DNA from: Candidatus Bathyarchaeum sp.
GTDB taxonomy: Archaea > Thermoproteota > Bathyarchaeia > Bathyarchaeales > Bathyarchaeaceae
Direction of reading: 5' to 3'
Assembly (NCBI GenBank): GCA_026014495.1
Contig: JAOZIF010000137.1
Span: 1 to 64,000 of the forward strand
Length of the DNA stretch: 64,000 nt
Shown in pieces: positions 11,591 to 34,304 of the stretch; within the stretch, counting starts at the first letter, position 1, and each line of letters begins with the position of its first letter. The position numbers and the translations under genes were made by a program. The notes under the pieces were generated by a model. The model was given only the letters and a program-made list of their open reading frames with translations. It had not been told where the DNA came from and ran no database searches.

Positions 11591-12502
11591 TCAGTTTGAT
11601 TTTTTATGCCCATAACCAGTTAAGTGACCCTTCAAGAAACCTGCCATCCAAGCAACCCTTTTGAAAGTGTAATGGAAGGGCAATAGAAAAGAAAACTTCT
11701 TGTGAGTTATTTTAAAGCCACTCTTACAACGAATTAAACCAGCGACAAAACCAGCCATAGGTGTCATTTTCAAAAGCGATATTGAATGGGCGTCTTTATG
11801 AAAGACAAAGTGACCTCCGTAGCCATACCACATGTATTGTGTCCAAAGGGAAAGAAGTGAATTTCGTGTGAATTCGACAAAAACTTCATCTGTTGACTCC
11901 AGTTTCCAACCAGTTTTGACTAATCGGGATACTAGTTCGGTATCTTCTGCTGCACCCTTTATGTTAACATCGAAACCTCCACTGTTTCTTACAGCATCAA
12001 CTCTATGGATGGCGCCTTCGGTTCCAGGTAAATAGCCATATGTTGACGATTCTTTTTCTCCGCAACTAGAGTCGACGACATAAACCAGATTTTCCAAGTC
12101 AGCAACAACGCCGTGACCCAGACATAAACCATATTTTCCTGCTGCAACGGCTACACGGGGGTTTTTTTCCATGAATTCAACTTGTCCTCTGGTGTATGTG
12201 TTGGATAGAACCATGTCTCCGTCTACCCATATTATGTATTTACTTTGGGCTTTGTCAACAACAATCTGCCGTGCAGCGCCTAAACCAGTAATATTGCGGT
12301 ATATTCGGTAAGTGATGTCTATATCGGAAAGGTAGTCTTTCACGATTGATAATGTCTGGTCGTTACTGAAGCCTTCAACGACAATTAGTTCAATTAAATG
12401 ATGAGGAAAGTCTTGACTGATTATGCTTTGCATTGTCTTTGCAATGGTCTCGTCTACATTCTTTATGCATAGACCAAGTGTGACAATTGGTGAGTTTGTC
12501 AA
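11591..12502 (-). CDS. Glycosyltransferase family 2 (paralog of 10159-11085)
   Basis: VVEGFSNDQT, GLGAARQ, WVDGDM, GGFDVNIKGAAED. Confidence 0.92.
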   Translation of the reverse strand: MTNSPIVTLGLCIKNVDETIAKTMQSIISQDFPHHLIELIVVEGFSNDQTLSIVKDYLSDIDITYRIYRNITGLGAARQIVVDKAQSKYIIWVDGDMVLSNTYTRGQVEFMEKNPRVAVAAGKYGLCLGHGVVADLENLVYVVDSSCGEKESSTYGYLPGTEGAIHRVDAVRNSGGFDVNIKGAAEDTELVSRLVKTGWKLESTDEVFVEFTRNSLLSLWTQYMWYGYGGHFVFHKDAHSISLLKMTPMAGFVAGLIRCKSGFKITHKKFSFLLPFHYTFKRVAWMAGFLKGHLTGYGHKKSN

Positions 12503-12566
12503 AGTTTTCAGTCGTCTCCTACGAATAAAAAATCAGACGGTGAGTTATGTTAAGCGTCTCACTCAT

Positions 12567-13787
12567 TCAGATTAAACCCTTTTCTTTGAGCATGTCTTCA
12601 GTTATGAGTGACCGAGCCTCTTGACTGGTTTTCCACAGTTTAAATCCACTACTTGTGACAAATGTTGTTAAAGCAGCCAATAGAATACAGTTGTTTTGTA
12701 TTACTTCGATTAACATTGTTCTAGTTTTTCTAATCAGCAATGCTGGACAAAGCATCACCAAAAACGCCGCCAACAATACAGGATATTGCATAAACACAAA
12801 AACGGAAATAACACCTAGAACGACAAACAGAACAGGATTAAAAAGGTGCAAGAAAAGCTCGGGCACAGCTATTTTCTTAGGAAGCTTCAGTTTTCGGTTA
12901 ACCAGTAACTTAAGAGACTTGATCCATAGACGCTGTAATTGGTTTGCACGTCTAATCTTCAAAGTTATCTTGCTTTTCCAGTCTGTTGGAAAAATAGTGT
13001 AGAAGCCCACTTCAGGAATTAGTAGGCTTCTGCTGTTTCTTTGCACAACATCAAAGGCTGTGCCAGAATCGTCTGTTTCATGATTGAATTCCTGAAGGAA
13101 TTTGCGTTTATAGGCTGCGAATCCGCCTTGAAAAAAGATTGTTGAATGTACTTTTGATTCGCCAATTCGAATTGATTGGACAGTGTTATCAAAAAATTGT
13201 TCTCCTACGGTAACCCATGAGCTTTGAGAGTTAAACAATAGCTCTCTTGCAGTTATTGCACCCACAGTTGGGTCTGATAGGTATGGCAAAGCTTTTATCA
13301 ATATATCTGAGTGCAAAAAGCAATCTGCATCGGATACTACTATAACATCACCTGTTGCATGTTTTAGGGCAAAATTTAGAGCTCTTGTTTTTCCTTCCCG
13401 TTCAGTTCTGCTTAATACTTTTATGTCCAAACAATCATTATTGCTTACAAATTCGTTTATTTCATCTATCGTTTTATCGGTTGAAGCGTCATTTACGAGT
13501 ATGGTCTCAAATTTCTTGCTAGGGTAATTAACTTTGCACAGGTTCTCCAACTTGAATCGAATGGTTTTTTCTTCATTACACACAGGCACTATGATACTTA
13601 TAGACGGATCATAGCTTTCAGTCAGCTTCAGATTCCAAGGTTTTGATGATTGACGTCTCATATACAGGTAATATATGCCTGAAAAACCTGAGAAAACGAA
13701 GAGTAGCAAAGCCCAAGCTACAAGCATCAAAATCATAAAAAAAATCACTCTTTTAGAACTCTTCTGAACAAAGAATAATCCATTCAA
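12567..13787 (-). CDS. Membrane-bound GT2 (CesA/PgaC/IcaA-like)
   Basis: N-terminal TM, SIIVPVCNEE, VNDASTD, GKTRALN, SDAD, ETDDSG, RRANQLQRLW, C-terminal TMs. Confidence 0.85.
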   Translation of the reverse strand: MNGLFFVQKSSKRVIFFMILMLVAWALLLFVFSGFSGIYYLYMRRQSSKPWNLKLTESYDPSISIIVPVCNEEKTIRFKLENLCKVNYPSKKFETILVNDASTDKTIDEINEFVSNNDCLDIKVLSRTEREGKTRALNFALKHATGDVIVVSDADCFLHSDILIKALPYLSDPTVGAITARELLFNSQSSWVTVGEQFFDNTVQSIRIGESKVHSTIFFQGGFAAYKRKFLQEFNHETDDSGTAFDVVQRNSRSLLIPEVGFYTIFPTDWKSKITLKIRRANQLQRLWIKSLKLLVNRKLKLPKKIAVPELFLHLFNPVLFVVLGVISVFVFMQYPVLLAAFLVMLCPALLIRKTRTMLIEVIQNNCILLAALTTFVTSSGFKLWKTSQEARSLITEDMLKEKGLI

Positions 13788-13796
13788 AAAATGGAC

Positions 13797-14708
13797 TCAG
13801 ATATTTTTGTTCAAGCGCTCATCGAACAGCTTGAATGTTTCACGTGCGTGGCTCTCTTTTGACACTCCTGCGACTACGCCTTTCAAATTGCTAAGATTTG
13901 CTAAGTAGGCTACAGCTTCAGGTGGTTTGAAGTAACCTGCTGCTAGCACACTTATAGCTAATACTATTGGGCTAGAAATATTAGACAAGGTGTTCTCAAA
14001 TTCGGTCCTTGATGGGTTCATTTGGAAACCTGCCTTGTTGAAAGGTGTTGCAATCAAAGTTTGGTCCAGATTAATATTCCATTCATTGAATTTTCTTACG
14101 AAAAGTGGAAGATTGCGAGTGTTAAATCCTGGAGTTATGCCTTTTTTAGAAAGAAATGAGGTGAAAGATTTGAATAACCAATCAAAGTTTAAAGCTAAAC
14201 CCATGTCTGTCAATACTTCATGGAGTAAAACTGATGACAGGTTTGCTTTTTTGCCAGCTGCCGCTTTTATTTTGTTAATTTCGTATGAAACATACGTTTT
14301 CAAGAGACTTTCAGGTTTCATCCTAAAAGCTCCGTTTAAGCCTCCAAAAATTGCCTGAACATCACCTGACAGTGCCATCTGTTTCACAACGTTCTTGGCT
14401 AAGCCAGGAGTTCCAGTCTGAGTTGCAATTCTAACGTATTCAAAGACGTAAGGGACTATTGCATGAAGCTCTAGTTTATCAATTTTCTCTCGTTCTCGTA
14501 AGGTTTTTAGAATTGTTAAGGTTAGGTCGCTCACAGAAAACATGAAACCTGTTGCACCGTTCTCAACAGCAGTTAGGATCAAGTCTGCCTTATCTGCTGC
14601 GGAAACATCGCCGTCGGCTCTACTTCGAGCCTGTTCTTGAGAGAGATGGCTGATTCCATGAAATGGATTGTCTCCTACTAGGAGCATGGTTCGCACTTTT
14701 TTATTCAT
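13797..14708 (-). CDS. Conserved hypothetical protein, probable TIM-barrel
   Basis: LLVGDNPFHGISH start, PFNKAGFQMNP; start overlaps the stop of the upstream oxidoreductase at 14708. Confidence 0.7.
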   Translation of the reverse strand: MNKKVRTMLLVGDNPFHGISHLSQEQARSRADGDVSAADKADLILTAVENGATGFMFSVSDLTLTILKTLREREKIDKLELHAIVPYVFEYVRIATQTGTPGLAKNVVKQMALSGDVQAIFGGLNGAFRMKPESLLKTYVSYEINKIKAAAGKKANLSSVLLHEVLTDMGLALNFDWLFKSFTSFLSKKGITPGFNTRNLPLFVRKFNEWNINLDQTLIATPFNKAGFQMNPSRTEFENTLSNISSPIVLAISVLAAGYFKPPEAVAYLANLSNLKGVVAGVSKESHARETFKLFDERLNKNI

Positions 14709-15718
14709 TATTGTTCACTTCTTGTTTTTACTTGTTCAATTATGTAGTCAACTTTCGAGGATGTCTCAAAGTTTGGTTCACAATGCTTGTTTTCTAACAA
14801 CGAATTAACGAAATGTTGGTTTTCTCTGAAGTATTCTGCATCACCTATCGAAAAATACACATTGTCATTAAGGTCATGTCTGTACCACTTCTGTTGGGTA
14901 CCATCACTTGAGGTCAAGAGTAATCTGTCGTCGTTTACATCTATTGTTCCATCAGAGCATTTGATGAACAAACCAAATTCTGGCATTCGATAATTTGGCA
15001 TTTGTTGGGAAACATTGATCTGTCCGGATAACCCTGCAGAATTAGTAACTGTGAAAGAAACTGATAGTTCAGAACCAGTTTCATTTCTTGTGCTGGACAA
15101 AACATTTTGAACATCGAAATCGCCAAGTATCCAGAGTGATAAGTCTATTATGTGACAACCGATGTCTCTGAGCGCGCCACCACGTGATGCAGAAGACATT
15201 GACTCCTTTGTTAGTCCAAGAAAATCTGAAGAATATGCATAAGCCTTGAAAGATTTTATTTTGCCCAGATTTCCTTGTTGTAATAATTCTTTAGCTTTCC
15301 CAAAAACAACAGAAAACCGTTTCATGTAACCAACCATGGTGATGCTGTCTGAGTTCTTGGCAAGTTCACACATTTCTTTAGCTTGCTCATAGTTGGTGGC
15401 AAGTGCCTTTTCCACGAACAAGTGACGAGCTATTTCTTTTTCATACAAAGTCTTTACTATTGATGAATGTGAAGAGATAGGAGTCGTCACGTAAGCTACG
15501 TCAAGGTCTAACCCTGCGAGTTTATCAATGTCATTAACAACAAGAACTCCTGTTGGTGAAAAGATTTTTTTATAAAGCCTATTCAGCAATTTGCTTTTGT
15601 CACATAATGCTACTAGTTCGACGTTAGAGAAAACATTCAAAAGGCTTGAATGCAACAGGCCCATTTTTCCTAACCCGATAACAGCAACTCTAAGTTTTTG
15701 TTTTTTCAAAGTATACAC
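14708..15718 (-). CDS. Gfo/Idh/MocA family oxidoreductase
   Basis: VAVIGLGKMG Rossmann motif, HLFVEKALA, VGYMKRF, GGALRDIGCHIID. Confidence 0.93.
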   Translation of the reverse strand: MYTLKKQKLRVAVIGLGKMGLLHSSLLNVFSNVELVALCDKSKLLNRLYKKIFSPTGVLVVNDIDKLAGLDLDVAYVTTPISSHSSIVKTLYEKEIARHLFVEKALATNYEQAKEMCELAKNSDSITMVGYMKRFSVVFGKAKELLQQGNLGKIKSFKAYAYSSDFLGLTKESMSSASRGGALRDIGCHIIDLSLWILGDFDVQNVLSSTRNETGSELSVSFTVTNSAGLSGQINVSQQMPNYRMPEFGLFIKCSDGTIDVNDDRLLLTSSDGTQQKWYRHDLNDNVYFSIGDAEYFRENQHFVNSLLENKHCEPNFETSSKVDYIIEQVKTRSEQ

Positions 15719-15837
15719 AACCTAATTTAAGTCTGTTTTTGACTAACCATTTGTTTTGAAATATCAAATCAAAACTGTTAAGCGAATAGCATCAGCTGTA
15801 AACATTAATAAATAAAGCAAAATAGAGGAGAACGTAA

Positions 15838-16584
15838 TTAAATGTTCATTGCGCCTCTGAAAAGAGTTTTCAAGATGCTAAATCCATCTCTAAAAGTGTT
15901 AAGATTAGAAATACCATAACGTCTTGCGCGCTCAATACTTGGAATTTCATGAACAGTTAGTCCGAGCAATTTCGATTTTATACAAATCTCTGTTTCAATT
16001 TCGAAATTCTCACTCTCTAGAACAGGATTAAGACAGCGTAATGCGTCTTTTTTGAACGCCATATAGCCATAGCATAAATCGGAATAGTTAGTAAGAAACA
16101 TGAAGTTTGAAATCCCTGTTAGAATCCTGTTGCCAACACGCCTTAATGGAGTTAAATCTTCAGAGCCACCGCAAGGCAAAAACCTCGAACCCTTTACAAC
16201 ATCTGCGCCCAGCTCTACAGCTTCAGCGAATCGAAATATCTCTTTTGGGTCCATTGACCCGTCAGCATCCAACATTACAGTAATGTCACTGGTACGCATA
16301 CTTTCTTGGAAAGCTTCACGCAATGCACCACCTTTACCTGATCCGTTCTGAAGAATGACTTTGGCTCCGAGCGTCTTAGCAATTTCAACAGTCTTGTCTT
16401 TTGAATGCCCATCTACAACTAAGATGTCGGCACAGCCTATTTGTTTTAAACTATTGATTATATCGTATATGTTTTTTTCTTCATTTAGCGTAGGAATAAT
16501 GACTGTTACTCGATTATTCCCAAACTGTGAATCATTCATCCGCATACTCACCATCATTCTTCTGAACAAAACAGTTATTTTCAT
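15838..16584 (-). CDS. GT2, polyprenol-phosphate glycosyltransferase-like
   Basis: VIIPTLNEE, VVDGHSKDKT, GKGGALR, MLDADGSMDP, VKGSRF, FEIETE, RRYGISNL. Confidence 0.9.
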   Translation of the reverse strand: MKITVLFRRMMVSMRMNDSQFGNNRVTVIIPTLNEEKNIYDIINSLKQIGCADILVVDGHSKDKTVEIAKTLGAKVILQNGSGKGGALREAFQESMRTSDITVMLDADGSMDPKEIFRFAEAVELGADVVKGSRFLPCGGSEDLTPLRRVGNRILTGISNFMFLTNYSDLCYGYMAFKKDALRCLNPVLESENFEIETEICIKSKLLGLTVHEIPSIERARRYGISNLNTFRDGFSILKTLFRGAMNI

Positions 16585-16715: not shown

Positions 16716-17402
16716 TTAGCTTTTGTCAATGTAAAATCTTTCAGTATTCTTAAAGTATCTATCAACATTTTCCACAACAGGCTTTTTGGAATTGTTCAAA
16801 ACCACTGACAACTCACTAGTAAACTGCTTAACAGCTTTCTTTTTAAGAGAAAGATACTCCGAAATATCGACGTCAGCAATGCAATCTTTGTACACGTCAA
16901 TCAATCGTTCAATGCGGGGTCCAAAATTCAAAAATCTATGCATCACAGAATATTGATACCTAATAGACGTTAACTTCAGATTTTGAAGGCATCTCCTAAT
17001 AATTCGATTCGCAGCGCGATGGTCAGGATGAGAATCACGCATAAACGGAAAATAGACCTCAACTGGAGAGTGTTTTTTGAGTATTTCAGTTATTTTTTGT
17101 TCAGCAACAGTTTCATGTTCTTTAAGCATTCTATCTTCAAAATCGAGAAACACTAAGTTTTCAACAGGTACACCTAATACAGTTGTAGCATCAATTACTT
17201 CTTTCTTTCTGATTTTGACTATCGCATCGGGAGTTATATCCGAGTTTAGATCTAAACAGTTAGAAAATGCATGCCTCCCATCGGTTAATAAAACGATGTA
17301 GACTTGATAGTTTTCACTAAGTTTTTTAGCGATTGTTCCACCACAACCCAAAGTCTCGTCATCTGGATGCGGAGAAAACACTACTATTGGTTTATCCATC
17401 AA
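16716..17402 (-). CDS. PIG-L/LmbE family N-acetylhexosamine deacetylase
   Basis: FSPHPDDETLGCGGTI, IRKKEVIDATTVLGV, DSHPDHRA zinc motifs. Confidence 0.93.
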   Translation of the reverse strand: MMDKPIVVFSPHPDDETLGCGGTIAKKLSENYQVYIVLLTDGRHAFSNCLDLNSDITPDAIVKIRKKEVIDATTVLGVPVENLVFLDFEDRMLKEHETVAEQKITEILKKHSPVEVYFPFMRDSHPDHRAANRIIRRCLQNLKLTSIRYQYSVMHRFLNFGPRIERLIDVYKDCIADVDISEYLSLKKKAVKQFTSELSVVLNNSKKPVVENVDRYFKNTERFYIDKS

Positions 17403-17466
17403 ACAACACTCTCATTTACGCATTAGGTAACCAAAGAAAAATAACAATTATTCATAAACACAAATT

Positions 17467-18588
17467 TTAATTTGATAAAATGTCTTTTTTCAAAGAAAAA
17501 CTAAGTTTCTTTGCCAAATTATCAACAGTGCTACTACAGGTAATCCAGTTGTAAAACTTACTATGCAAACTATTGCGCACTAACCTAACTTCAAAATTCT
17601 TTCTGTAGGTGTGCGTCCATCTTTTTTTGTACGCTTCAGCACCTCTCATAAGATCATATTCCTTAATTCCATTTTCTATACAGCGCTTCAAAATGAGCAT
17701 TATTGTGAGACTCCCAGCAGAATAAACAGAATACTCAGGAAGAAAACCCGAGAGATAATAATACGTCTTTTCAGCATAATCAAAGGAATAGTGACCTGCA
17801 ATGGGTTCATCGTTAGCCATTAAGAAATAAAGACTCAACCAGTTTTTATCATTAAAACGTTCAGCGACATCTACATGAAAATCACGAAAAGCTCCATCAT
17901 GAAAAGCCCCTGACAATCCTTCCGAGTTCCATTTTTTTTGATGTATCTCCATGAAAACATTTATAGCTTCATTAACTGAGAGTCCAACCTCGTCAAACTT
18001 TTTAAAATCTATTTTATGATTTTGCTTAATTCGTCGTAGTTTTTTGTTCAGGTCCTGTCGCATGTTGCAGCTCAACCCTTTCATAAAACTTTCAAACGAA
18101 TCAGGCAAAGTAATATACGGACACACATTGTAAACTCTTTCTTGAACATCTAAATTGAACGGAACATTGGAAAAGAGGTTGCCAGAATAATTTTTGCTTT
18201 CAGGAATTTCCTTAAGCTCAATCCAATCCCAGTCTGCAACGACATTCACCAAATAATCCATTATAATATTTAGACACTTTTCTTTTTGTTCAGCAATAAT
18301 AAAATTGTTATAATCAGAATGGCGGGTTCCCACAAATTCTACTTTTTTAACTGAACCCAAACCAGGCATCTTATACTTCGATAACATTAGTGGAGCAATA
18401 GCACAAACCTTGTCTTCATCTTCAACAGTTAAAAGCAAAAGGCGCCTGTTAGACCCGAAATGCTTCCACCAAGTAGACAACCAGGCCCAAGTCAAGAAAA
18501 CGTTGTTACCAAAAAGGTTGCTTTCAAGAACAGTGTCCCATGTTTCCTTAACACCATCAAAGTTATCCACTTCGTTTAGTTTCAACAT
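17467..18588 (-). CDS. GNAT acyltransferase, CelD/BcsL (Acetyltransf_6, Fem-like) family
   Basis: VFLTWAWLSTWWKHF, GTRHSDYNNFI, YLSGFLPEYSVYSAG, YDLMRGAEAYKKRW. Confidence 0.9.
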   Translation of the reverse strand: MLKLNEVDNFDGVKETWDTVLESNLFGNNVFLTWAWLSTWWKHFGSNRRLLLLTVEDEDKVCAIAPLMLSKYKMPGLGSVKKVEFVGTRHSDYNNFIIAEQKEKCLNIIMDYLVNVVADWDWIELKEIPESKNYSGNLFSNVPFNLDVQERVYNVCPYITLPDSFESFMKGLSCNMRQDLNKKLRRIKQNHKIDFKKFDEVGLSVNEAINVFMEIHQKKWNSEGLSGAFHDGAFRDFHVDVAERFNDKNWLSLYFLMANDEPIAGHYSFDYAEKTYYYLSGFLPEYSVYSAGSLTIMLILKRCIENGIKEYDLMRGAEAYKKRWTHTYRKNFEVRLVRNSLHSKFYNWITCSSTVDNLAKKLSFSLKKDILSN

Positions 18589-18625
18589 TAATATCCCTCA
18601 CGCTTAAGTCAGCTAACAGGAGACA

Positions 18626-19507
18626 TCATTTTTCTCTGAAAATACGCAGATAAGCAGAAGCAGCCATTGCACGGAGATCGTCTTTCAAAACTTTCTTAGG
18701 AAAAGCCTGTTTGAAGTAAGAAAAATCTCCAACAGGAGAAAAAGTTGAGTCCCAAACACCATCACGGGAAGCCACAGTAATTTGTTTCACTGAACGAGTT
18801 GAAATACCCATAAGTTTTGAGGCAGCAATATCTGCTACAAGAGGGTTGTCACAAGACATCACCAAGTTCAATTGTTTAGCGTATTTTCCATGTGCAACTA
18901 GACCATCGACTACAACCAAATCAGTTTTGATTTGCTTGTTTATGAAAACTATTGCTTCGTCCAATACTTTGTGATACTTGAACTTTTGTGGATAAGCGTT
19001 ACATCCATAAAAATTCTTTAGTGCACACGTAATTTTCACACCGTGCATATACTTTAGTTTAGGAACGTTTACCACAAGATCGGCTTCATAAAATAGTTCA
19101 GGTATATGGAACGTGAATAGTGAACGACCGATTCTAGCGTCGATGATACGGCATTTCTTTTCGGTTAAATTGACTAAGTTTACGTCTTTTTCTTTAGCCA
19201 TCTTGTCATATTCAAGCATCTTGAAGGCATGTTTGCATTTCATGGCGGAGGCGTCTGATTCTACGACGAAAATTTCAGAAGTTCGGGCAAAATTTTCTCT
19301 AAAAACGTCAATCAGAGCAGCAACGAATAATGGATCAGTGACTTCTCCAGTTGAAGGGTGATAATAGTAACACATATTTGGTTTTATTACGATTTTATCA
19401 GCGTTCCTGTTAAAGTTGAATCCAATTAAATCTAGAGATTCTTTGATTGCAGCTTTCAATGTATCTGGATTACAGTTCTCAGTACGAACAAAACTTACAG
19501 TGCTCAA
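18626..19507 (-). CDS. DUF362 domain protein
   Basis: IVIKPNM, VVESD, VNVPKLK, TCALKNFYG, VVVDG, DNPLVADIAASKLMG. Confidence 0.85.
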   Translation of the reverse strand: MSTVSFVRTENCNPDTLKAAIKESLDLIGFNFNRNADKIVIKPNMCYYYHPSTGEVTDPLFVAALIDVFRENFARTSEIFVVESDASAMKCKHAFKMLEYDKMAKEKDVNLVNLTEKKCRIIDARIGRSLFTFHIPELFYEADLVVNVPKLKYMHGVKITCALKNFYGCNAYPQKFKYHKVLDEAIVFINKQIKTDLVVVDGLVAHGKYAKQLNLVMSCDNPLVADIAASKLMGISTRSVKQITVASRDGVWDSTFSPVGDFSYFKQAFPKKVLKDDLRAMAASAYLRIFREK

Positions 19508-19522
19508 GTCTTTTCCTCCTTT

Positions 19523-20524
19523 TTAGGTGTGCAGTCCTGAATTCTTCATCGCGTTTTTGTATGCAGAATCAATTACTTTCAAGCCATACAAGCCAGCATC
19601 TCCTGAAGGCTGAGGCTGCTCATCTTTCTGTAAACTGCTAACAAAATGTTCTAGTTCCAAGTAGTTAGAATCCTTTTTATTTAACCCAAATTTGCGTGCA
19701 ATACCGTTCCAGAAGATTTTTGAAGTGCTCTGAGGAGAAATTTGAACCAGCATATTTTGGGCAGTCCCACAAACTTGAACCGATTGCAAAAAGTCTGTTG
19801 AGAACCATCCTACTTTAGCAGTTGCTACAGGACCGTCCTTAAACTTTAGCACACAAGTCGCAGCATCCTCCAACTCGAGGTTAAACATGTGTTCTAAAAA
19901 ACATTCTACATGAACGACTTCACCGAAATACCAGCTTAACAAGTCAATCAGATGTGAACCAAGGTCTAGTAAAACACCGCCTCCAGATAGTTCTTTGTCA
20001 AGCCACCATGACGGAACTTTAACAGGACCAACATGGTCACTTCTTGGAGAGAATGGACCACCACTGACATTGGTGACCTCCGCCAATTTAATGCTGCCAA
20101 ACAAACCATCTTTTATTCCATCATATAGGTTTGAAAGAATGGGGTTAAATCTCATATCATATCCCATCATCAGTTTAACACCGTTCTTTCTGACAGCTGA
20201 CAGAATTTCCTTCCCTTCATCAACAGTTCTAGCTAGCGGTTTCTCCAGAAGAATGGCTTTTCCAGCTTCTGCCGCTTTCTCTGCACCATCACGATGAAGA
20301 AAGTTGGGCAAACTAACGACAACTGCGTCAACAGCGTCATTTTTCAAAAGGTCATCATAGTTAGCGTAAACGTCTTTGATACCCATTCCTTTTGCATACC
20401 TTCGGGCTTTTTGAGATAAATCTGCCACGGCCACGGTTTTTGCGCCCTCTAGCCGTAGAGAATTACGAAGACTTACTTTGCCTTGTTCTCCAAGCCCAAT
20501 TAATCCTAAATTTACCTGTTTCAT
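19523..20524 (-). CDS. Gfo/Idh/MocA family oxidoreductase
   Basis: GLIGLGEQG, LPNFLH, ILLEKPLA, GYDMRFNP, SGGGVLLDLGSHLID. Confidence 0.93.
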   Translation of the reverse strand: MKQVNLGLIGLGEQGKVSLRNSLRLEGAKTVAVADLSQKARRYAKGMGIKDVYANYDDLLKNDAVDAVVVSLPNFLHRDGAEKAAEAGKAILLEKPLARTVDEGKEILSAVRKNGVKLMMGYDMRFNPILSNLYDGIKDGLFGSIKLAEVTNVSGGPFSPRSDHVGPVKVPSWWLDKELSGGGVLLDLGSHLIDLLSWYFGEVVHVECFLEHMFNLELEDAATCVLKFKDGPVATAKVGWFSTDFLQSVQVCGTAQNMLVQISPQSTSKIFWNGIARKFGLNKKDSNYLELEHFVSSLQKDEQPQPSGDAGLYGLKVIDSAYKNAMKNSGLHT

Positions 20525-20549
20525 AATCTATCTCTCATTTTATAAAAAA

Positions 20550-21590
20550 TTACAGAAATACTGCAAGGAATTTTTCGCATAATGATAACACAAATTTGTT
20601 AAATTTTGGCATATAGACTTTGTTATAAAGATACACTTTGTTAAGTTGTCCTTTCCATTCTCTTTTCCATCTCCATAAACCCCAGCCTTCAGAGTTTTCA
20701 TTGGGCAGCGGTTCACGGACGTGCCCCATATGATACCAAGAGAATCCATTGTTGCAAGCCCATTTCATTGTTTCCCAGTGTAGCAGATCGTTGGGTCTTA
20801 CGTGCCAACTTTCTTCCCGAGAACCTGTACCTAATGCATAAGCAGTCTTGCCATGAAGTACGACAAAAACTCCAGCAACAGGTTGACCCTCAAAAACAGT
20901 TAAGAATATTTTTAGATTGTTACGTTTTCCAAAGATTTTGCTGAGAGATTGAAAATATATAAAAGGGTATGTTTTGAAGCCAACTCTTTTAGCTGAAATC
21001 GCGTGTAACTCAAAAAAGGAAGCGAGGGCATCATAGTTGTTACATTGAACTACTTTGGCACCTTGTTTTTGTGCTTTTTTGATGTTTCTTCTTTTGTTAT
21101 GTGTAATTGTTTTCCAAAGTTCGGTTTCAGATTTCCGAAGGTCTACTTTGTAAACGTTGAATACTGTGTTAACTGTATAACCCATATTTTCTAAAGTCTG
21201 ATTTGTTTCTGGCGCATAGATGTTAGCTTCAGAGACCCTGTTCTGGATTGCATGTTTTTCTAATAGCCCCATTAACTTTTCCAGAACTTCTTTCCTGTTG
21301 TCTGTCCCTACAACTGGTCCGTAACCATAAACGCCGCCAACTTCTGTGCGGTCACCAAACCCGAACCGCTTGTTGTATCGAGCTTGAATTAAACCTGCAA
21401 GATTATCATCGTTTATTGCTAAAAACCTTAGAATTTTCGCGTGGGGATTAGATTCCTTTATGGCTTCGCCGTATTCAAATGACTGTTGAAGATTACCTAA
21501 AGTGTAGTCCTGCAAGAACTTTTCCCACATGCCAGATGTAGGGTGGTCGATAATTGTATATTTGTCCATAATACTAGTCTCTTGCAACAT
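20550..21590 (-). CDS. FemABX-family (lipid II:glycine glycyltransferase-like) aminoacyl transferase
   Basis: GNLQQSFEYG, GYGPV, DLRKSETELWKTITHNKRRNIKKAQKQG, PNDLLHWETMKWACNNGFSWYHMG, GLWRWKREWKG (Fem C-terminal FK-x-x-F/W-G equivalent). Confidence 0.85.
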   Translation of the reverse strand: MLQETSIMDKYTIIDHPTSGMWEKFLQDYTLGNLQQSFEYGEAIKESNPHAKILRFLAINDDNLAGLIQARYNKRFGFGDRTEVGGVYGYGPVVGTDNRKEVLEKLMGLLEKHAIQNRVSEANIYAPETNQTLENMGYTVNTVFNVYKVDLRKSETELWKTITHNKRRNIKKAQKQGAKVVQCNNYDALASFFELHAISAKRVGFKTYPFIYFQSLSKIFGKRNNLKIFLTVFEGQPVAGVFVVLHGKTAYALGTGSREESWHVRPNDLLHWETMKWACNNGFSWYHMGHVREPLPNENSEGWGLWRWKREWKGQLNKVYLYNKVYMPKFNKFVLSLCEKFLAVFL

Positions 21591-21609
21591 AACGTAAAGC
21601 TGTTTTGAA

Positions 21610-22848
21610 TCAAAAACTTACACCTGGACGACTCCAAGGATAGACTTTTTTCTTTATGATTTTTGCCAATGCGACTGGAAACAAAGCCGAATTGAACAAA
21701 AATGGAAGTGGATCATCTAATTCAAACAAATCATAAAAGAGTCCGGGTTCATAAAACTTGAGCCAGCTAGCTAATACTTTCAGGTTGTTCTGGTTTTTAA
21801 AGATGTGATTTGTAAAGCCGTTTTTAAGCATGCTAAAGAGGTATAGTAGGTCTTGATCAAAGTATCTGCCTTTAACGCCCACCTTATAGTTGAAGACTCC
21901 CTTAACGTCACCGTCCATAGCAATTTGGTAAAGTAAATACGGAAAGTCCACTCCAGCTTTGACTGCAACAGATAGTGATCCCCAGAAACGAGGGTTAATC
22001 TCCAGTAGTTTTGGAATATTATCTCGGGAGTCAACTCTAAACTCAAGTTCTGCAATTCCGTGCCAATCTAACGCCTTAAGCAAAGTTTCACTGTATTTTC
22101 TTAGATTATTAGTAAGCGGAACAGTTTCGCGATAACAGCTGTTGCCACCTTCAGGAGGCCATGCTCGAGTTACTTTGATACAACAAAATGCTCGAGGTTT
22201 ACCGTTGTTGTATACAGTCGCCACTGAAAAGTTCGTTCCCGGAACATATTCTTGAATTAAAGGATACGGAAAATATTGATGAATACTGTTATAAGTTGCG
22301 ATAAGCTCTGCAGGTGAATTGACAAGACCCCCTCTTCTGTGATAAGCACGACCATTTCCCCAAACCATAGACCATCGCGGTTTGACGATACACGGATAGG
22401 TTATTTCTTGCGAGATTTTGTTCAGTTTAGCGGTTGAATTATCTACAAAAAATGTTTGTGGAATGGGTACGCTGTGTTCAGTGGCTAATTTCATTGTTGA
22501 TCGTTTGTCAAAGCACTTGAGAATTGAATCATGACGGGCAATAGGAAGGTTCACATAAGGACTTATTCGATCTCTGTTTTTGGAGATTGGTAAAAGAGAC
22601 CATTCAAAGATGGGAAAAAGAAGATCAAACTTTGTTTTTTTAACGATTTTTTCTACTGCACAAGCATATTCTTTTTCAAAACTCGTAGATGGAACCAGCA
22701 CTTGTCTTTTGCAATATTTTGAAAACCGAGAAACAGATAAAGAATAACTCGACATAATAGCTGTGTCTACTTTTCGTTTTCCTAGAGATCTTAAGATGGG
22801 AAGGACAACCGGATTATGTCCCTCGGCAATTAAAACACCATTACCCAA
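21610..22848 (-). CDS. ATP-grasp carboxylate-amine ligase
   Basis: ILRSLGKR, CFDKRSTMKLA, YPCIVKPR, PLIQEYVPG, LDWHGIAELEFRVD, LLEINPRFWGSL, AGVDFP. Confidence 0.92.
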   Translation of the reverse strand: MGNGVLIAEGHNPVVLPILRSLGKRKVDTAIMSSYSLSVSRFSKYCKRQVLVPSTSFEKEYACAVEKIVKKTKFDLLFPIFEWSLLPISKNRDRISPYVNLPIARHDSILKCFDKRSTMKLATEHSVPIPQTFFVDNSTAKLNKISQEITYPCIVKPRWSMVWGNGRAYHRRGGLVNSPAELIATYNSIHQYFPYPLIQEYVPGTNFSVATVYNNGKPRAFCCIKVTRAWPPEGGNSCYRETVPLTNNLRKYSETLLKALDWHGIAELEFRVDSRDNIPKLLEINPRFWGSLSVAVKAGVDFPYLLYQIAMDGDVKGVFNYKVGVKGRYFDQDLLYLFSMLKNGFTNHIFKNQNNLKVLASWLKFYEPGLFYDLFELDDPLPFLFNSALFPVALAKIIKKKVYPWSRPGVSF

Positions 22849-22892
22849 GGCATAACTACAACCATTTACGAGCTATTTCAGGAAAGTCTCTT

Positions 22893-24263
22893 TCAAATTG
22901 TTTTATCTTTATAAAGGACATCTTCAGGAGTTTCTCGTTCTCGAATCAGTTTGACATTACCGTTTGAATCTAAATTAACTGCACCAGGACGGGGATGAAG
23001 AAATTGTGTGGATCGCGAAATTGTGTATGCACCGCAATCAGAAATTGAAAGTATGTCGCCTTCAGAAACTTTTGGAAGAAAAGTTTTGAGATTAATGAAA
23101 TCTTCAACATATAGTAGAGGACCAACTACATTAATTTCCTCTTCTGGTTGTTTGGATGCTTTGTTTGCAACACTAATTTTTCGCTGCTCTATTGCACCAA
23201 AACGAGGAAGCAGATTTGTTCCAGCATCAACCATTACCCATTTGTAGCCGCCAGCATTTTTGACATGATCAATACGTGTAAGTAAGATTCCAGACGCTGA
23301 AGTGATAAATCTCCCTGGTTCAACAATAATTGTTGGTTCAGGTAAATCTTCTAGACCTTGCTTGATTTCGTTTACAATAGACTTGGCAACAGATTCTATG
23401 TTTGTAATGTTACGGTTTTCAGCTAATTTTGATTTGAGACCGATTTTTCGTCTCAGAAAGTCTTTGATTAAATCATTGTTTCCAATAAAACGAGCCCCAC
23501 CGGGATTGAATCCACCGCCTATGTTGAGGTATTTAAGTTCAACTCCAAAGTTTCTGTAGAGTTCGCGCATCATAGGTAGAAGTACTTTTGTTGATACCCT
23601 ATAGGGATGAGCCATTATTGCTTCAATTTTCAAGTTTTTGAGTTTTGTTGCCTGTTGAACGGCTGAATATGCTTCTTTTATAGAAAAACCGAATCTACTT
23701 CCAAGATTGCAATAAGCAGCGGTAACAAGCTTGTTTAAAGAGAGATACTTGAATATACCGGGTTCTTTGAAGGGATTTATTCTGAAACCGATAGCCTGTT
23801 TAACGCCCAACTCTCCTGCTACAGCATTCACTCTGTTGAGTTCAGTAAGAGATTCGACATTTATGAGTCGGATTTGCTTGCTGATAGCTGTCTTTAGTGT
23901 TTCTTTGGATTTCATGGGACCATCAAAGATTATGTTCTCGCCACCAAAGCCAGCCCGTAAAGCCACATGTATATCAAGTTCGGAAGCAACTTCGGCGTAT
24001 GCTCCGTTCTCTTTAAGGGTTTGGCAAATAGCCAAATTGTTATTGGTTTTGATTGAATAACAAACCATTACTTTGGGATATAAAGCAGAAAATGCACTGG
24101 AGATACGATTAAAGTTCTCTATAAGCTTAACTTCGTCAAAGACAAAAAGTGGTGTATCATATTTTTCGCATAGTTCAACCAAGTTTACTCCGTGTAGAGT
24201 CAAATGACCCTTTTTGTCGATTCCAAAGCTATTTTCGTGAATCAAGTTTTTATTAATCTCCAA
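22893..24263 (-). CDS. PLP-dependent group IV decarboxylase, diaminopimelate decarboxylase (LysA)-like with a divergent active site
   Basis: YDTPLFVFDE, CYSIKTN (PLP Lys), EVASELD, INVES, SRFG, LNIGGG, EPGR, DCGAY, HPRPGAV; GPLLYVED in place of GPLCES. Confidence 0.85.
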   Translation of the reverse strand: MEINKNLIHENSFGIDKKGHLTLHGVNLVELCEKYDTPLFVFDEVKLIENFNRISSAFSALYPKVMVCYSIKTNNNLAICQTLKENGAYAEVASELDIHVALRAGFGGENIIFDGPMKSKETLKTAISKQIRLINVESLTELNRVNAVAGELGVKQAIGFRINPFKEPGIFKYLSLNKLVTAAYCNLGSRFGFSIKEAYSAVQQATKLKNLKIEAIMAHPYRVSTKVLLPMMRELYRNFGVELKYLNIGGGFNPGGARFIGNNDLIKDFLRRKIGLKSKLAENRNITNIESVAKSIVNEIKQGLEDLPEPTIIVEPGRFITSASGILLTRIDHVKNAGGYKWVMVDAGTNLLPRFGAIEQRKISVANKASKQPEEEINVVGPLLYVEDFINLKTFLPKVSEGDILSISDCGAYTISRSTQFLHPRPGAVNLDSNGNVKLIRERETPEDVLYKDKTI

Positions 24264-24305
24264 TAGTAATACAGATACGCTGATTTAAACAGCACATTCT
24301 CATGC

Positions 24306-25442
24306 TTACACAAGTATTTCAGGCATGGCTTTCAAAAATCGATCGTTCATATTGGGAAGGCCTATGGTAACGCGTAGACAGTGACCGATAACGGGTAATT
24401 CGCCAAGATTCTTTATTATTATGCCTTTATCTAAAAGTTCACGGTAAACTTCCTCGGTGTTTTTGTTAGTTTTAAATGTAACAAAGTTTGCTTTTGAATC
24501 CAAAACTTTTATTCCGTTAATAACACGCAATTTACTAAGAAGTCTCTCACGCTCAGTGTTAACTAAATTTGTCCATCTTTGCACAACTTCAATGTTATCC
24601 AACAGCCTTTGGACGTACCTAGCAGTAAGTGTGCTAACAGTATAAGGAAGTGTCTCTGAAAGGACTGAAGCAAAATCCTTGTGCGCAGTAGCGTACCCAA
24701 ATCGTAGTCCCGCCAAACCAAACGCTTTGGAAAATGTCCGCACTACAACTATATTCTTTTTATTAATAGCCAATGGACAAACAGAATACGTTCCAAACTC
24801 CACGTAAGCTTCATCCACTAAGACAACCGCAGAAGATGCATTAGCCAAAGCTTCAATTGCAGCCCAATCAAACTGATTTCCAGTAGGATTATTCGGTGAA
24901 CAAACAAAGATTAACTTGGTCTTATTCGTCACCTTCTTAAGAACATCATCAACATCAATAGACAAATCGTCTCTAAGGGGCACTGAAACCAGCTTAGCTC
25001 CACTTAACTCCACCCTCTTTTTATACATGAAGAAACTGGGCGAAATTGAGATGGCTTCATCACCTTTTTCCAAGAAAAGCTGGATAATAAAATCAATTAG
25101 TTGTTCGCTACCACTGCACGCCACAACACATTCAGAAGGCACACCTACATATTTTCCTAAGGCAGTTTTAAGCTCAACCATTGCGTTTGAATCATAAAAT
25201 CTCAAATCAACATTTTTAATAACCTCTAGAAAAACGCCTTTAAGAAAACTAGAGTCAACAAAGAAGTTTTCGTTAGCATCTAACTTTAGAATCTGAGAAG
25301 AACAAATGCCAAGCTTTGAGGCAAGCTGGGTAACACCAGTAGAAGAATTAACATAACCGAGAAGTGATCCATCAAAGGATTGCAAAAGTTCAAGCTTTTT
25401 TTCTAACCAATTCAAATTCGGTTTCACTTCCATAATTTTCAA
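24306..25442 (-). CDS. Class I/II PLP aminotransferase, histidinol-phosphate aminotransferase (HisC/CobD)-like
   Basis: KLDANEN, SGSEQLI, CSPNNPTG, VDEAY, RTFSKAFGLAGLRFGY, SKANF, CLRVTIG. Confidence 0.88.
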   Translation of the reverse strand: MKIMEVKPNLNWLEKKLELLQSFDGSLLGYVNSSTGVTQLASKLGICSSQILKLDANENFFVDSSFLKGVFLEVIKNVDLRFYDSNAMVELKTALGKYVGVPSECVVACSGSEQLIDFIIQLFLEKGDEAISISPSFFMYKKRVELSGAKLVSVPLRDDLSIDVDDVLKKVTNKTKLIFVCSPNNPTGNQFDWAAIEALANASSAVVLVDEAYVEFGTYSVCPLAINKKNIVVVRTFSKAFGLAGLRFGYATAHKDFASVLSETLPYTVSTLTARYVQRLLDNIEVVQRWTNLVNTERERLLSKLRVINGIKVLDSKANFVTFKTNKNTEEVYRELLDKGIIIKNLGELPVIGHCLRVTIGLPNMNDRFLKAMPEILV

Positions 25443-25466
25443 TCTCAGTTATAATCAGTTATTATT

Positions 25467-25540
25467 TGGAGCCAGGGGTTGGAGTTTCACCAACGTGAGC
25501 GGCTCTGCAAACCGCCGCCTGATTACTCAGCCACCCTGGC
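25467..25540 (-). tRNA. tRNA-Cys(GCA), non-canonical D- and T-loops, CCA encoded
   Basis: Minus strand folds by hand as GCCAGGG TG GCTG AGTAATC AGGC G GCGGT TTGCAGA GCCGC TCAC GTTGG TGAAACT CCAAC CCCTGGC T CCA (74 nt). Seven-bp acceptor stem, GCA anticodon, G37, U73. Confidence 0.9.
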
Positions 25541-25582: not shown

Positions 25583-26194
25583 TCAGATAACAGCAGATCC
25601 AATGGTCATATTGAGCTTTAGGTCTACGTATCTTTCGTGATATTGAAAGTTACCAAGTTCGTTATTGTAAATCCAAAGTTCGAAGAATACATTTCCGATA
25701 AATCCGTTTATTTGCGAGTTCCATGTTGTAGACCCAGTAATATCTAACAGGACACCATTTAACGTCATACTGTTAAAGGTGACTTGTGAAAGATTTTCAT
25801 TATAGCTGTAGTCAAACGAAAAAACAATGGGTAACTCCCATGTTTCGTTGTTAACAAGAGAAAATGTGATATCATACAAAGAGGGCAAACTGCTTGAGCT
25901 CTCAGTTAAACTGTCAGCAGCCGATTGAGTTATATTACGGAATTTGACTTTAATCATGTAATCGCTATCAGTCCCTAATAAATTTCCAACACCTAAAAAC
26001 ACGTTATAGTCCTCGTTAAGTGTAATATTAAACGGATAGGTTTCACCATTATGTTCTGGACCCAGAAGCCAAAGTTCAGTGAAGAACTCTGTTTGGGGAA
26101 GAACTAAAAACCGTTGTAACACAGGCGAAAGAACAAATAGTGACAAAACGAATATAACAACTAAAATAACTGTTGTGTAATTTTTATAACGCAT
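25583..26194 (-). CDS. DUF1616 domain membrane-anchored protein
   Basis: N-terminal TM then FFTELWLLGPEHNGETYP, VFLGVGNLLG, YMIKVKFRN, FELWIY; RBS GGAGGT upstream. Confidence 0.8.
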   Translation of the reverse strand: MRYKNYTTVILVVIFVLSLFVLSPVLQRFLVLPQTEFFTELWLLGPEHNGETYPFNITLNEDYNVFLGVGNLLGTDSDYMIKVKFRNITQSAADSLTESSSSLPSLYDITFSLVNNETWELPIVFSFDYSYNENLSQVTFNSMTLNGVLLDITGSTTWNSQINGFIGNVFFELWIYNNELGNFQYHERYVDLKLNMTIGSAVI

Positions 26195-26402
26195 TTTAAG
26201 ACCTCCAAATCACTCATGTAATTTTTTCAAAAGAATTAGTTTCACCAGCAACAAAAACAAAAGATACAAGAGTTGCGCATCATATTAACAATAAGGCATT
26301 GCATCAATTCTAAAGCGTGTTCCTTTCAAAGTTCCCTGAAACAAGAATCTGAAACAAACAAGAGGTTCAACAAGAAAAATTAGTCTACTTATTCTTGTGC
26401 AA

Positions 26403-26789
26403 TTATGCTGTTTCTTTTGAGTGTTTGTGGTTAGAGTTATTTGACAAATCTATGTTAGGACACATCGCATCTAACATCAGCCTTTGGTCTTCAACATGGT
26501 TCAACTGATTGTACACACTCTCACGCGATTTGTCATATTCACTAAATGTAGCCAAAAACATTTGTCCTTTTTTCGTGAGCATATAACGATTTCTCTTTCC
26601 ACAAACGATCAACTCCGCTTCTGTCAAATCATTTAGGTACTGAACCAAGAGCTTATAGCTCAAATACGCTTGATACATTATTTGAGTTCTCTTAGCACCC
26701 TTGTTAGCACTAATTACAGAAAGAATGTTTGCTAATATTACTAGTCGACTTCTGTGTTTACCCATTTTATTCACACAAAAAACAAACAA
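26403..26789 (-). CDS. Winged-helix transcription regulator (archaeal HTH_45-like)
   Basis: MGKHRSRLVILANIL...GAKRTQIMYQAYLSYKLLVQYL...YMLTKKG; probable start at MGKH (26765). Confidence 0.85.
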   Translation of the reverse strand: MFVFCVNKMGKHRSRLVILANILSVISANKGAKRTQIMYQAYLSYKLLVQYLNDLTEAELIVCGKRNRYMLTKKGQMFLATFSEYDKSRESVYNQLNHVEDQRLMLDAMCPNIDLSNNSNHKHSKETA

Positions 26790-34200: not shown

Positions 34201-34304
34201 ACGATCCAATACATCCAACAGTTGATGTAATTGAACTGCTAGGTACAATCAGCGAAAAACCACAACACGACTGCCCAGCACCATCATTAAGTGCTCTACC
34301 ATAG
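31233..34304 (+). CDS. Probable S-layer (major cell-surface) glycoprotein
   Basis: 1,023 aa, signal peptide, acidic and Thr-rich, at least 15 N-x-S/T sequons counted by eye, own promoter and terminator, flanked by glycosylation genes. True start may be ATG 31257. Confidence 0.7.
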   Translation: MKQKGNEKMNHKKLMTILTTTAIITTLLGTMLLTQISMAATTYTSDYVTTDGVMYDDSYVLFPFEMNNLTIGFSKYGEMIDYNTKIGLSYDGYDAFGPDAGVVESQWVEGWILNITYVEGGNYKNIWAMATYSDYYAGGIGGDWNEDVTVGSLSLDVRGGRKTSGGAVTDPITMLYDGPREFIALLKTTIYEDSTHTTPLVSLTFTIVFNKVEKQVVIYKDVKRIDEGKNIGDMQIEFGDRGEWDLGSSASGAAPKSYAHFFTNQTTIYDGEYQLWYENATAGGTYDSTYTVCQIISDDQNYVGWAAFWPTPIVNWVGATQLGANRATILTTTSTKTETHVLTETTSELTITGEPSVYPQNTTTGDVLWKEDPMVFVNDAYKIIDGTDPESSVTYNNATNTITFPSGYEPGAGAVVTIVYKHENIKEDMNSEPNSPFVIGEWAFRMTQAGESFRGVTIYGITDLNDGDDEDIGGGHTNVIDSEIQYYLDETFDPYDLQDAVHKDTRRWVYIDESLSSSQSVFVLENAPMEFSPLPDWDAYSDFSERVLVDGVLQVPTRAGGTDYTLSVNTATGVGTITFASAVAAGSHVKILYSTLPEWSDSDSITFDDITDTTNTIDVGTTLTNNVADAEYVPVDPLGVNMSFNFDLDVEVEITGTANFTETIVVDWYDWIEDFKVLSDPNEIDDDVDHYTATLENVTAVGADITVTVTAREFGWNITADNEATVIDGLGATLSLSIEAVVSNGTTDWFNVTITPTIDYAYGAHQEGQYEWIAVGTDAATIDSIGAAYMTQAFDSLKQIHVQMTGLDIRDMEGPNAPYVMAGATTSTKTDYYYDYPNDNRTALADDWCTTVPVASSNMLFSGGPLANLGSEYFNDFTNAFYTLEQYVTNDTGHSNSILSLPCWDKNTYSTNATHGYAVVSVYKDINGTIGFLIWGINAQDTYYATKWFWSYPAGMLSEEDTVVYSGIHYLQAMNEGITDIVLRIYYPPDDPIHPTVDVIELLGTISEKPQHDCPAPSLSALP

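Follow-up and report, generated by a model that had tools for sequence, protein, structure and literature searches.

The window analysed here (64,000 nt, contig JAOZIF010000137.1 of Candidatus Bathyarchaeum sp.; contig C174 of genome G000, a 2.19-Mb metagenome-assembled genome of 93% completeness) carries on its minus strand, at 16716–25540, a module of eight open reading frames (ORFs; 16716–25442, intergenic gaps 15–64 nt) headed by a transfer RNA (tRNA) gene; the deviant tRNA-Cys encoded there and the two Fem-type transferases that follow it are the subject of this report. The tRNA-Cys(GCA) gene was located with ARAGORN at 25467–25540, on the strand of the operon and 24 nt before the first ORF (Rfam tRNA, 43.6 bits), and was the one intron-less tRNA called in the window. 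Pfam and NCBIfam searches of the ORF products gave, from the tRNA onward: a HisC-family class I/II pyridoxal phosphate (PLP) aminotransferase (24306–25442; Pfam Aminotran_1_2, 1e-53; TIGR01141); a fold-type III PLP enzyme derived from diaminopimelate (DAP) decarboxylase (22893–24263; TIGR01048, 264 bits, and PDB matches); an ATP-grasp ligase of the PRK12767 'CPS-like' type (21610–22848; Pfam ATPgrasp_Ter and ATP-grasp_3; NCBIfam); a FemAB-family transferase (20550–21590; Pfam FemAB, 80.1 bits); a GFO/IDH/MocA NAD(P) sugar oxidoreductase (19523–20524; Pfam); a DUF362 protein (18626–19507; Pfam DUF362, 2e-32); an Acetyltransf_6 GNAT, the second Fem-type double GNAT (17467–18588; Pfam Acetyltransf_6, 3e-31, 108.9 bits); and a PIG-L/LmbE-family zinc de-N-acetylase (16716–17402; Pfam PIG-L, 100.4 bits). 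An earlier note on this DNA had described eight co-oriented genes with a tRNA-Cys, embedded among GT2 genes in an archaeon with no peptidoglycan genes in view; the ORF map and the ARAGORN call bear this out, GT2 genes were found on both flanks, relatives of the proteins and contigs, where named, belong to the Bathyarchaeia, and no Mur-ligase domain was found in the 93%-complete genome. Six of the eight genes had been named; the GFO/IDH/MocA oxidoreductase and the DUF362 protein had been left out.

Two tRNA-Cys(GCA) genes are present in G000, a canonical one on contig C194 and the deviant one in the operon. Canonical copy: D-loop AATGGTTTA with the GG, T-loop TTCAATT, Rfam 55.1 bits. Operon copy: D-loop AGTAATCA without the GG, T-loop TGAAACT, the near-universal U55-C56 being replaced by G55-A56; the four stems, the CUGCAGA anticodon loop, U73 and the encoded CCA are retained. 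The two deviations together (D-loop GG missing, T-loop TGA for TTC) were seen in this copy only among the 34 ARAGORN tRNAs of the genome. When ARAGORN was run in intron mode, two further odd calls were returned from G000, a TTA-anticodon ('Stop') tRNA on C186 and a tRNA-Leu(CAG) on C113 with a 4-nt D-loop and a TTT T-loop; each may be a mis-call or an intron-containing gene.

Copies of the deviant lineage were collected from related contig neighbourhoods (labelled L0xx; genomes are given G-numbers) and aligned with canonical copies. Positions 54–56 of the 19 deviant copies read TGA (14), TGC (3), TTA (1) and TTC (1); G55 is present in 17 of the 19, no copy departs from GCA or U73, and almost every copy encodes CCA. 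The canonical copies in the alignment (4 of 4) read TTC and have the D-loop GG; TTC was also read in the copies of G400 and G314. Acceptor stems are mostly identical between the two lineages, the differences being located in the D-loop, the variable loop and the T-arm. In 16 operon-linked copies 99.4% of the stem cells are paired and seven pairs show a compensatory change (12 covarying pairs once canonical copies were included); none of 500 shuffles matched these pairing values, and sliding of the partner lowered pairing to 30–55%. The deviant lineage is, as judged from the aligned copies, under selection as a tRNA. The Rfam bit score was tried as a discriminator and rejected, the deviant and canonical copies being hardly separated by it. 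Upstream of many of the tRNA copies A/T-rich boxes were seen; on inspection of these upstream regions no clear shared promoter motif was found.

The anticodon GCA and U73 are identity elements for cysteinyl-tRNA synthetase (CysRS); as GCA, U73 and CCA are retained, the deviant tRNA should be a substrate of the ordinary CysRS. A full CysRS (525 bits) is encoded in the genome, and no phosphoseryl-tRNA synthetase (SepRS) was found in it, the only match to the SepRS model being weak and PheRS-like; the donor would thus be Cys-tRNA and not Sep-tRNA, and the phosphoserine route that the earlier note had kept as an alternative was rejected. A 419-aa CysRS paralog is encoded on contig C3 of G000 (1425–2684; L008); it matched positions 1–396 of the 466 of the cysS model (309 bits, below cut-off), and so is without the C-terminal anticodon-binding end, and scored 151 bits with the MshC model. 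It was considered as a dedicated synthetase or MshC analogue and rejected: it occurs in G262 and in the operon-less G383, and is absent from the operon genomes G400, G314 and G124.

The FemAB protein scored 80.1 bits with Pfam FemAB (PF02388; cut-off 24) and matched FmhB and FemX in the PDB by sequence; its AlphaFold2 model (pLDDT 93.2) has two GNAT domains in the Fem arrangement. The top 11 Foldseek matches of the model were all aminoacyl-tRNA-dependent transferases (TM 0.68–0.81), among them FmhB (6snr, 0.79), Weissella FemX (0.74–0.77), Sbb17/Sba18 with the amino sugar streptothrisamine bound (0.68/0.81) and FemA; MprF-type aminoacyl-tRNA enzymes ranked next, and the tandem GNATs that use acyl-coenzyme A (acyl-CoA) gave TM 0.45–0.59. 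The pair W308-K309, invariant in 38 homologs, aligns to the F-K dyad (AFKK) of FmhB; the catalytic lysine of FemX is K305, in the aromatic-lysine dyad F304-K305 (PMC12945691). The Acetyltransf_6 protein did not reach the Pfam FemAB gathering score (15.8 versus 24 bits) and gave no PDB match by sequence search; hhalign aligned it to the FemAB family (96.5%, E 8.5e-10, 344 columns). Its AlphaFold2 model (pLDDT 89.3) gave the same Foldseek ranking, with Weissella FemX as the top match (TM 0.61/0.67) and Sbb17/Sba18 at 0.66–0.68, and in the alignment the counterpart of the Fem dyad is Y320-K321; across 38 homologs K321 does not vary and Y320 is kept in 90% or more. In neither GNAT family is the CoA-binding motif [RQ]xxGx[GA] conserved. 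Both proteins are predicted from these models to be Fem-type double-GNAT folds closest to aminoacyl-tRNA transferases, with the aromatic-lysine dyad kept, so that the two Fem/GNAT enzymes announced from the sequence are upheld. An aminoacyl-tRNA, and not acyl-CoA, may be the donor of both; indirect indications are the fold ranking, the lack of a conserved CoA motif and the linked tRNA. Two proteins (P0045, 556 aa; P0087, 495 aa) are fusions of a class-I S-adenosylmethionine (SAM) methyltransferase with FemAB, which suggests that the two domains may work on the same substrate.

The PIG-L protein (100.4 bits versus the cut-off of 28.2) has both metal-binding/catalytic motifs of the family (HPDD and HxxH), as H12-P-D-D-E and H125-P-D-H, and looks from them to be an active de-acetylase. 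Its best NCBIfam matches were BshB1 and BshB2; the equivalog cut-offs of the thiol-pathway deacetylases were not reached (bits/cut-off: BshB1 77.9/182.5, BshB2 67.2/195, MshB 25.5/224).

The HisC-like protein meets the TIGR01141 cut-off (298.8 versus 276.6 bits), and is one of four genes of that level in G000, the best of which (333 bits) lies on C143; it is the first gene after the deviant tRNA in most related loci, and this fixed place in the operon makes a role in histidine synthesis doubtful. The LysA-like protein, the sole such gene in the genome, fell below the TIGR01048 cut-off (263.9 versus 297.9 bits); PDB matches: LysA (1e-52), DokD (1e-40) and BtrK (1e-34), with D-Orn/Lys decarboxylase among the solved relatives. 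Its pocket is rebuilt (GPxCES to GPLLY, CHIGSQ to MxHPY, and an insert of ~40 aa after GGGF, all in nine orthologs), and the RPxxY region is altered; neither DapA nor DapF was found in the genome. A housekeeping LysA (diaminopimelate decarboxylase) was rejected on the score, the changes in DAP motifs and the missing DapA and DapF. The two PLP enzymes claimed before are thus present: one is a HisC paralog, the other descends from LysA and has a remodelled pocket, and any role given to them is a guess. Related loci differ in the ATP-grasp gene, which some have and others lack; its product gave no PDB match by sequence search. For the GFO protein the best NCBIfam match was archaeal UDP-GlcNAc 3-dehydrogenase (145 bits, far below the cut-off); its gene and that of the DUF362 protein are always adjacent in relatives, and an Atlas search with the DUF362 protein returned DUF362 clusters only. 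In relatives the decarboxylase is separated from HisC by one or two genes for class-I SAM methyltransferases. Variable accessories are the HisC paralog, the LysA-derived enzyme, the ATP-grasp protein, the methyltransferase of relatives and the GFO–DUF362 pair; they probably make the appended group or modify it further.

Neighbourhoods of FemAB homologs were drawn from metagenome contigs and species-representative genomes; a scan of the genome contigs with the single FemAB sequence gave only one distant locus. In some 15 related loci the deviant tRNA is found a short way before Fem-type genes and on the same strand as the operon. Its distance to the operon is 19–164 nt in the window, L013, L017, L031 (two copies), L032, L033 and L052; in L041, L042, L045 and L054 HisC is the gene that it precedes. 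A search of the genome contigs with the T-arm/acceptor pattern gave five matches (L041–L045), all directly upstream of the first gene of the module, and a metagenome scan added L052 and L054. The gene order recurs in many related contigs and is therefore not a chance arrangement. The gene upstream of the tRNA differs by locus (DUF1616 or a family-less 303-aa gene), so that the tRNA belongs with the head of the operon.

Variant loci show which partners are constant. In L063 (G366) HisC, the decarboxylase and FemAB are missing and there are two copies of the deviant tRNA, one followed by GT4 and Acetyltransf_6 genes, the other by ATP-grasp, GFO, DUF362, Acetyltransf_6 and PIG-L; in L044 the tRNA directly precedes Acetyltransf_6, then radical-SAM genes, GFO and DUF362, and PIG-L is absent from this locus, whose sequence ends before one would appear. 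Not one of HisC, the decarboxylase, ATP-grasp and FemAB is found throughout the loci that have the tRNA, gaps being seen in L063, L044 and L017. The constant partners of the deviant tRNA are accordingly the Fem-type double GNATs, together with PIG-L where the sequence suffices. Of 401 genomes sampled evenly from the class, five have the deviant tRNA (G000, G400, G124, G314 and G366); these span four families and all have Fem-type and PIG-L genes beside it. A canonical tRNA-Cys is present elsewhere in every operon genome examined (G000, G400, G314, G124 and G262). In L031 (13222–17911; G400) two copies of the deviant tRNA, one of them with stem mismatches, enclose fragments of decarboxylase and DUF1616 genes; the arrangement looks like a local duplication scar.

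The module is proposed to be a tailoring operon of a cell-surface glycan island; the gene content, folds, tRNA paralogy and linkage given above are observed, and each chemical step is inferred. Working on the cytoplasmic side, the PIG-L protein would de-N-acetylate a hexosamine in a precursor that is linked to a nucleotide or a lipid; the FemAB protein, the Acetyltransf_6 protein or both would transfer cysteine from Cys-tRNA to the freed amine; and the second Fem-type enzyme would add a further residue or act at a second site. The donor would be the operon's own tRNA-Cys, charged by the normal CysRS, and the loss of the universal elbow nucleotides (D-loop GG; U55/C56 to G55/A56) probably bars this tRNA from use by ribosomes and leaves its cysteine to the glycan pathway. 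Cysteinylation, from a private tRNA-Cys, of a de-N-acetylated hexosamine in a surface glycan precursor is considered slightly more likely than not. The core of the earlier note, de-N-acetylation by PIG-L followed by tRNA-dependent cysteine transfer by a Fem-type enzyme, has gained strong comparative support from the linkage of the deviant tRNA-Cys and from the Fem folds.

Several observations weigh against this proposal. The copy of L033 has a canonical TTC loop and that of L013 has TTA; the Rfam scores of the deviant copies (43.6–53.4 bits) are only slightly below the canonical 55.1. In G262, a genome of the same genus, an intact HisC–decarboxylase–Acetyltransf_6–FemAB–PIG-L operon (L034) is preceded, before HisC, by no more than the 5' half of the tRNA (L034, 5626–5665); either the private tRNA is not strictly required or that operon is decaying. 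On the DNA covered, the deviant tRNA is without following Fem genes in L053, L055 and L057 (HisC is eroded in L055, and other glycan genes come after the tRNA in L053 and L057), and in L056, a 2.7-kb contig with no operon gene on it, the tRNA (2065–2137) lies by a weak integrase fragment, a tRNA-Ser and an aldehyde:ferredoxin oxidoreductase gene. Stand-alone FemAB homologs in other glycan loci (L015, L016, L035, L064 and L065) have no tRNA within 10 kb. Many of the loci come from related organisms and so are not independent.

These irregularities lend some weight to the view that the deviant tRNA is no substrate at all, being a hitch-hiker or landmark of a mobile glycan island (an integration or recombination site, a promoter or an RNase P signal), with GNATs that use acyl-CoA or ordinary aminoacyl-tRNAs of another amino acid. 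The island is patchy and scarred (duplicated fragments in L031, the eroded HisC of L055, the tRNA remnant of L034), one copy adjoins the integrase fragment of L056, other glycan genes follow the tRNA in L053 and L057, FemAB homologs occur with no tRNA nearby, and the proteins are labelled CelD/BcsL acetyltransferases by JGI. An attachment remnant, however, would not keep its cloverleaf by compensatory change, and GCA, U73 and CCA besides, while the partner proteins diverge to 38% identity; the copy is an extra one alongside a canonical tRNA-Cys, operon strand and close spacing are constant in every locus, no integrase was found among the annotated ORFs of the window (roughly the first 47 kb), and the folds are nearest to aminoacyl-tRNA transferases, with no conserved CoA motif. 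A processing signal is disfavoured also by the altered elbow, which should hinder and not help recognition by RNase P. On balance this explanation is regarded as unlikely. It is most improbable that the deviant gene is a second translational tRNA-Cys isoacceptor placed in the operon by chance: it does pass the Rfam tRNA gathering score and has kept its stems, anticodon loop and CCA, but it is the only one of the 34 tRNAs of the genome without the D-loop GG and U55-C56, G55 is conserved across the lineage, the gene occurs among the 401 genomes of the class only in those with the Fem-type module, and the same change of U55 to G marks the staphylococcal tRNAs that are excluded from translation (PMC7826273).

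The same chemistry (glycosyltransferase, PIG-L, cysteine from the private tRNA, N-capping by a methyltransferase or the second GNAT) could instead end in a soluble thiol of the mycothiol/bacillithiol type (Cys-GlcN-X, GlcN being glucosamine), the Fem enzyme and tRNA replacing MshC or BshC. BshB1 and BshB2 as best matches of the PIG-L protein would fit such a product, as would the GT4, Fem-type and PIG-L genes behind the tRNAs of G366, the SAM methyltransferase in the operons of relatives and the methyltransferase-FemAB fusions; a dedicated tRNA would suit a high-flux product, and on a Helarchaeota-labelled contig (L014, 5197–6906) a 569-aa protein gave a marginal match to the N-terminal part of BshC. 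The BshB scores are nevertheless far under the cut-offs (78 versus 182 bits), the BshC match is marginal (26.7 versus 27 bits; 23.6 versus 266), and two Fem-type enzymes with an ATP-grasp protein exceed what a Cys-GlcN thiol needs. The module is set among about ten glycosyltransferases and GT-C-like membrane proteins, and it occurs in few of the 401 genomes of the class, a pattern more in keeping with variable surface glycans than with a core redox buffer. The context points to a glycan more than to a mycothiol-like thiol, and the soluble product is held to be quite unlikely. The gene for the BshC-like protein of L014 adjoins FemAB, two PIG-L genes, a decarboxylase and two ATP-grasp genes, and the contig ends before the position of the tRNA.

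The nearest precedent for a glycan cysteinylated from a private tRNA is staphylococcal. The non-proteogenic tRNAGly species of staphylococci (NP1-3) carry TGC or TGT for TTC, their determinants lie in the D and T arms, and their binding to EF-Tu is weak; they are preferred by FmhB, FemA and FemB, and such tRNAs are said to be known only from staphylococci (PMC7826273). As there, the tRNA described here is an extra paralog beside a proteogenic copy, with changes in the D- and T-loops (TGA or TGC in place of TTC) and with the identity marks of its synthetase kept, and it is partnered with Fem-family double-GNAT transferases, which in staphylococci acylate the amine of a cell-envelope precursor. 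The differences are that the host is an archaeon and not a Firmicute, that the amino acid is cysteine and not glycine, that the system is known from genes alone, and that peptidoglycan is lacking and no Mur ligase was found, the acceptor presumably being a de-N-acetylated hexosamine. A further difference is the location of the tRNA gene: it heads the operon of the enzymes, which makes the pairing of tRNA and enzyme visible in the genome. A precedent for the acceptor is Orf11 of the BD-12 pathway, a Fem-fold enzyme that aminoacylates an amino-sugar amine from aminoacyl-tRNA, according to PMC12945691, which cites Maruyama 2016. Orf11, Sba18 and Sbb17 (streptothrisamine; PDB 9wqw–9wqy) share the Fem fold and are among the top structural matches of both models (TMt 0.81; 0.66–0.68), but they belong to a bacterial antibiotic pathway, draw on Gly-tRNAGly of the general pool with no dedicated tRNA, and have 10–13% identity to the window proteins.

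In mycothiol and bacillithiol synthesis (MshA-D, BshA-C) the order of steps is the same (glycosyltransferase, PIG-L/LmbE, cysteine on the GlcN amine, N-capping); cysteine is activated there by the CysRS-like MshC or by BshC, whereas here the equivalog scores are below the cut-offs and the genes lie in a polysaccharide island. The PEP-CTERM/exosortase A loci contain the same pair of genes, FemAB and a PLP decarboxylase (TIGR03019, TIGR03099), in an exopolysaccharide locus, and these models gave 66 and 142 bits on the window proteins; the scores are well below the cut-offs, however, and those loci are bacterial, with no tRNA described with them. In BtrJ/BtrK (butirosin) and Cj1436-1438 (Campylobacter jejuni capsule) an ATP-grasp protein is teamed with a PLP enzyme (decarboxylase or aminotransferase), and the pair equips a sugar-based product with an amine or amide side group. 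The module here has no carrier protein, and its ATP-grasp protein is without sequence match to solved structures; a role of this kind in the module is a guess.

In the literature no description was found of Fem-type genes with a dedicated tRNA in archaea; the domain of life, the amino acid, the class of acceptor and the operon-encoded tRNA are new here. The fullest form of the proposal is that a private, translation-excluded tRNA-Cys serves solely to feed Fem-type cysteinylation of a de-N-acetylated hexosamine, as a non-proteogenic tRNA without precedent in Archaea or anywhere else beyond staphylococci, and as a tRNA-dependent alternative to MshC/BshC that yields thiol-bearing surface glycans or a new low-molecular-weight thiol; it is put forward tentatively, at slightly less than an even chance. 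Were it true, the solution of a private tRNA with a Fem enzyme would have arisen independently, in a form in which the pairing can be read from genomes, and would be a natural orthogonal tRNA/transferase pair; cysteinyl-hexosamine (thiol glycans, or a mycothiol-like thiol made without MshC or BshC) would join archaeal envelope chemistry, in a lineage that is uncultured and globally abundant in sediment. It would also open the CelD/BcsL/FemAB-like genes, which are widespread in polysaccharide loci, to direct tests of their function.

The surroundings of the module are a surface-glycan island. Downstream, on the minus strand, are a GT2 gene, a second GFO oxidoreductase, a family-less 303-aa protein, a membrane GT2 and a further GT2 (11591–16584; Pfam), genes that also flank the module in relatives; upstream, on the same strand, are a DUF1616 membrane protein and an HTH_45 regulator (25583–26789; Pfam), the usual left border of the island, seen in L013, L017, L032, L033 and L063. 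The ~44 kb around the module hold GT2, GT4 and GT-C-like membrane proteins (DUF2206, DUF2079, GT87/PMT_2-like), methyltransferases, a hexapeptide acyltransferase, a sulfatase and a GH5 enzyme. A plus-strand ORF of 1023 aa without Pfam match (31233–34304) faces the glycan operons. The 303-aa protein (13797–14708) contains zero cysteine and has no family match; the idea that it is a DUF362 paralog was rejected, BLASTP similarity being absent. Its gene overlaps the stop of the second GFO oxidoreductase gene (14708–15718) by 1 nt, and the pair is conserved, often directly upstream of the tRNA (L017, L031, L032, L041, L042, L044 and L052).

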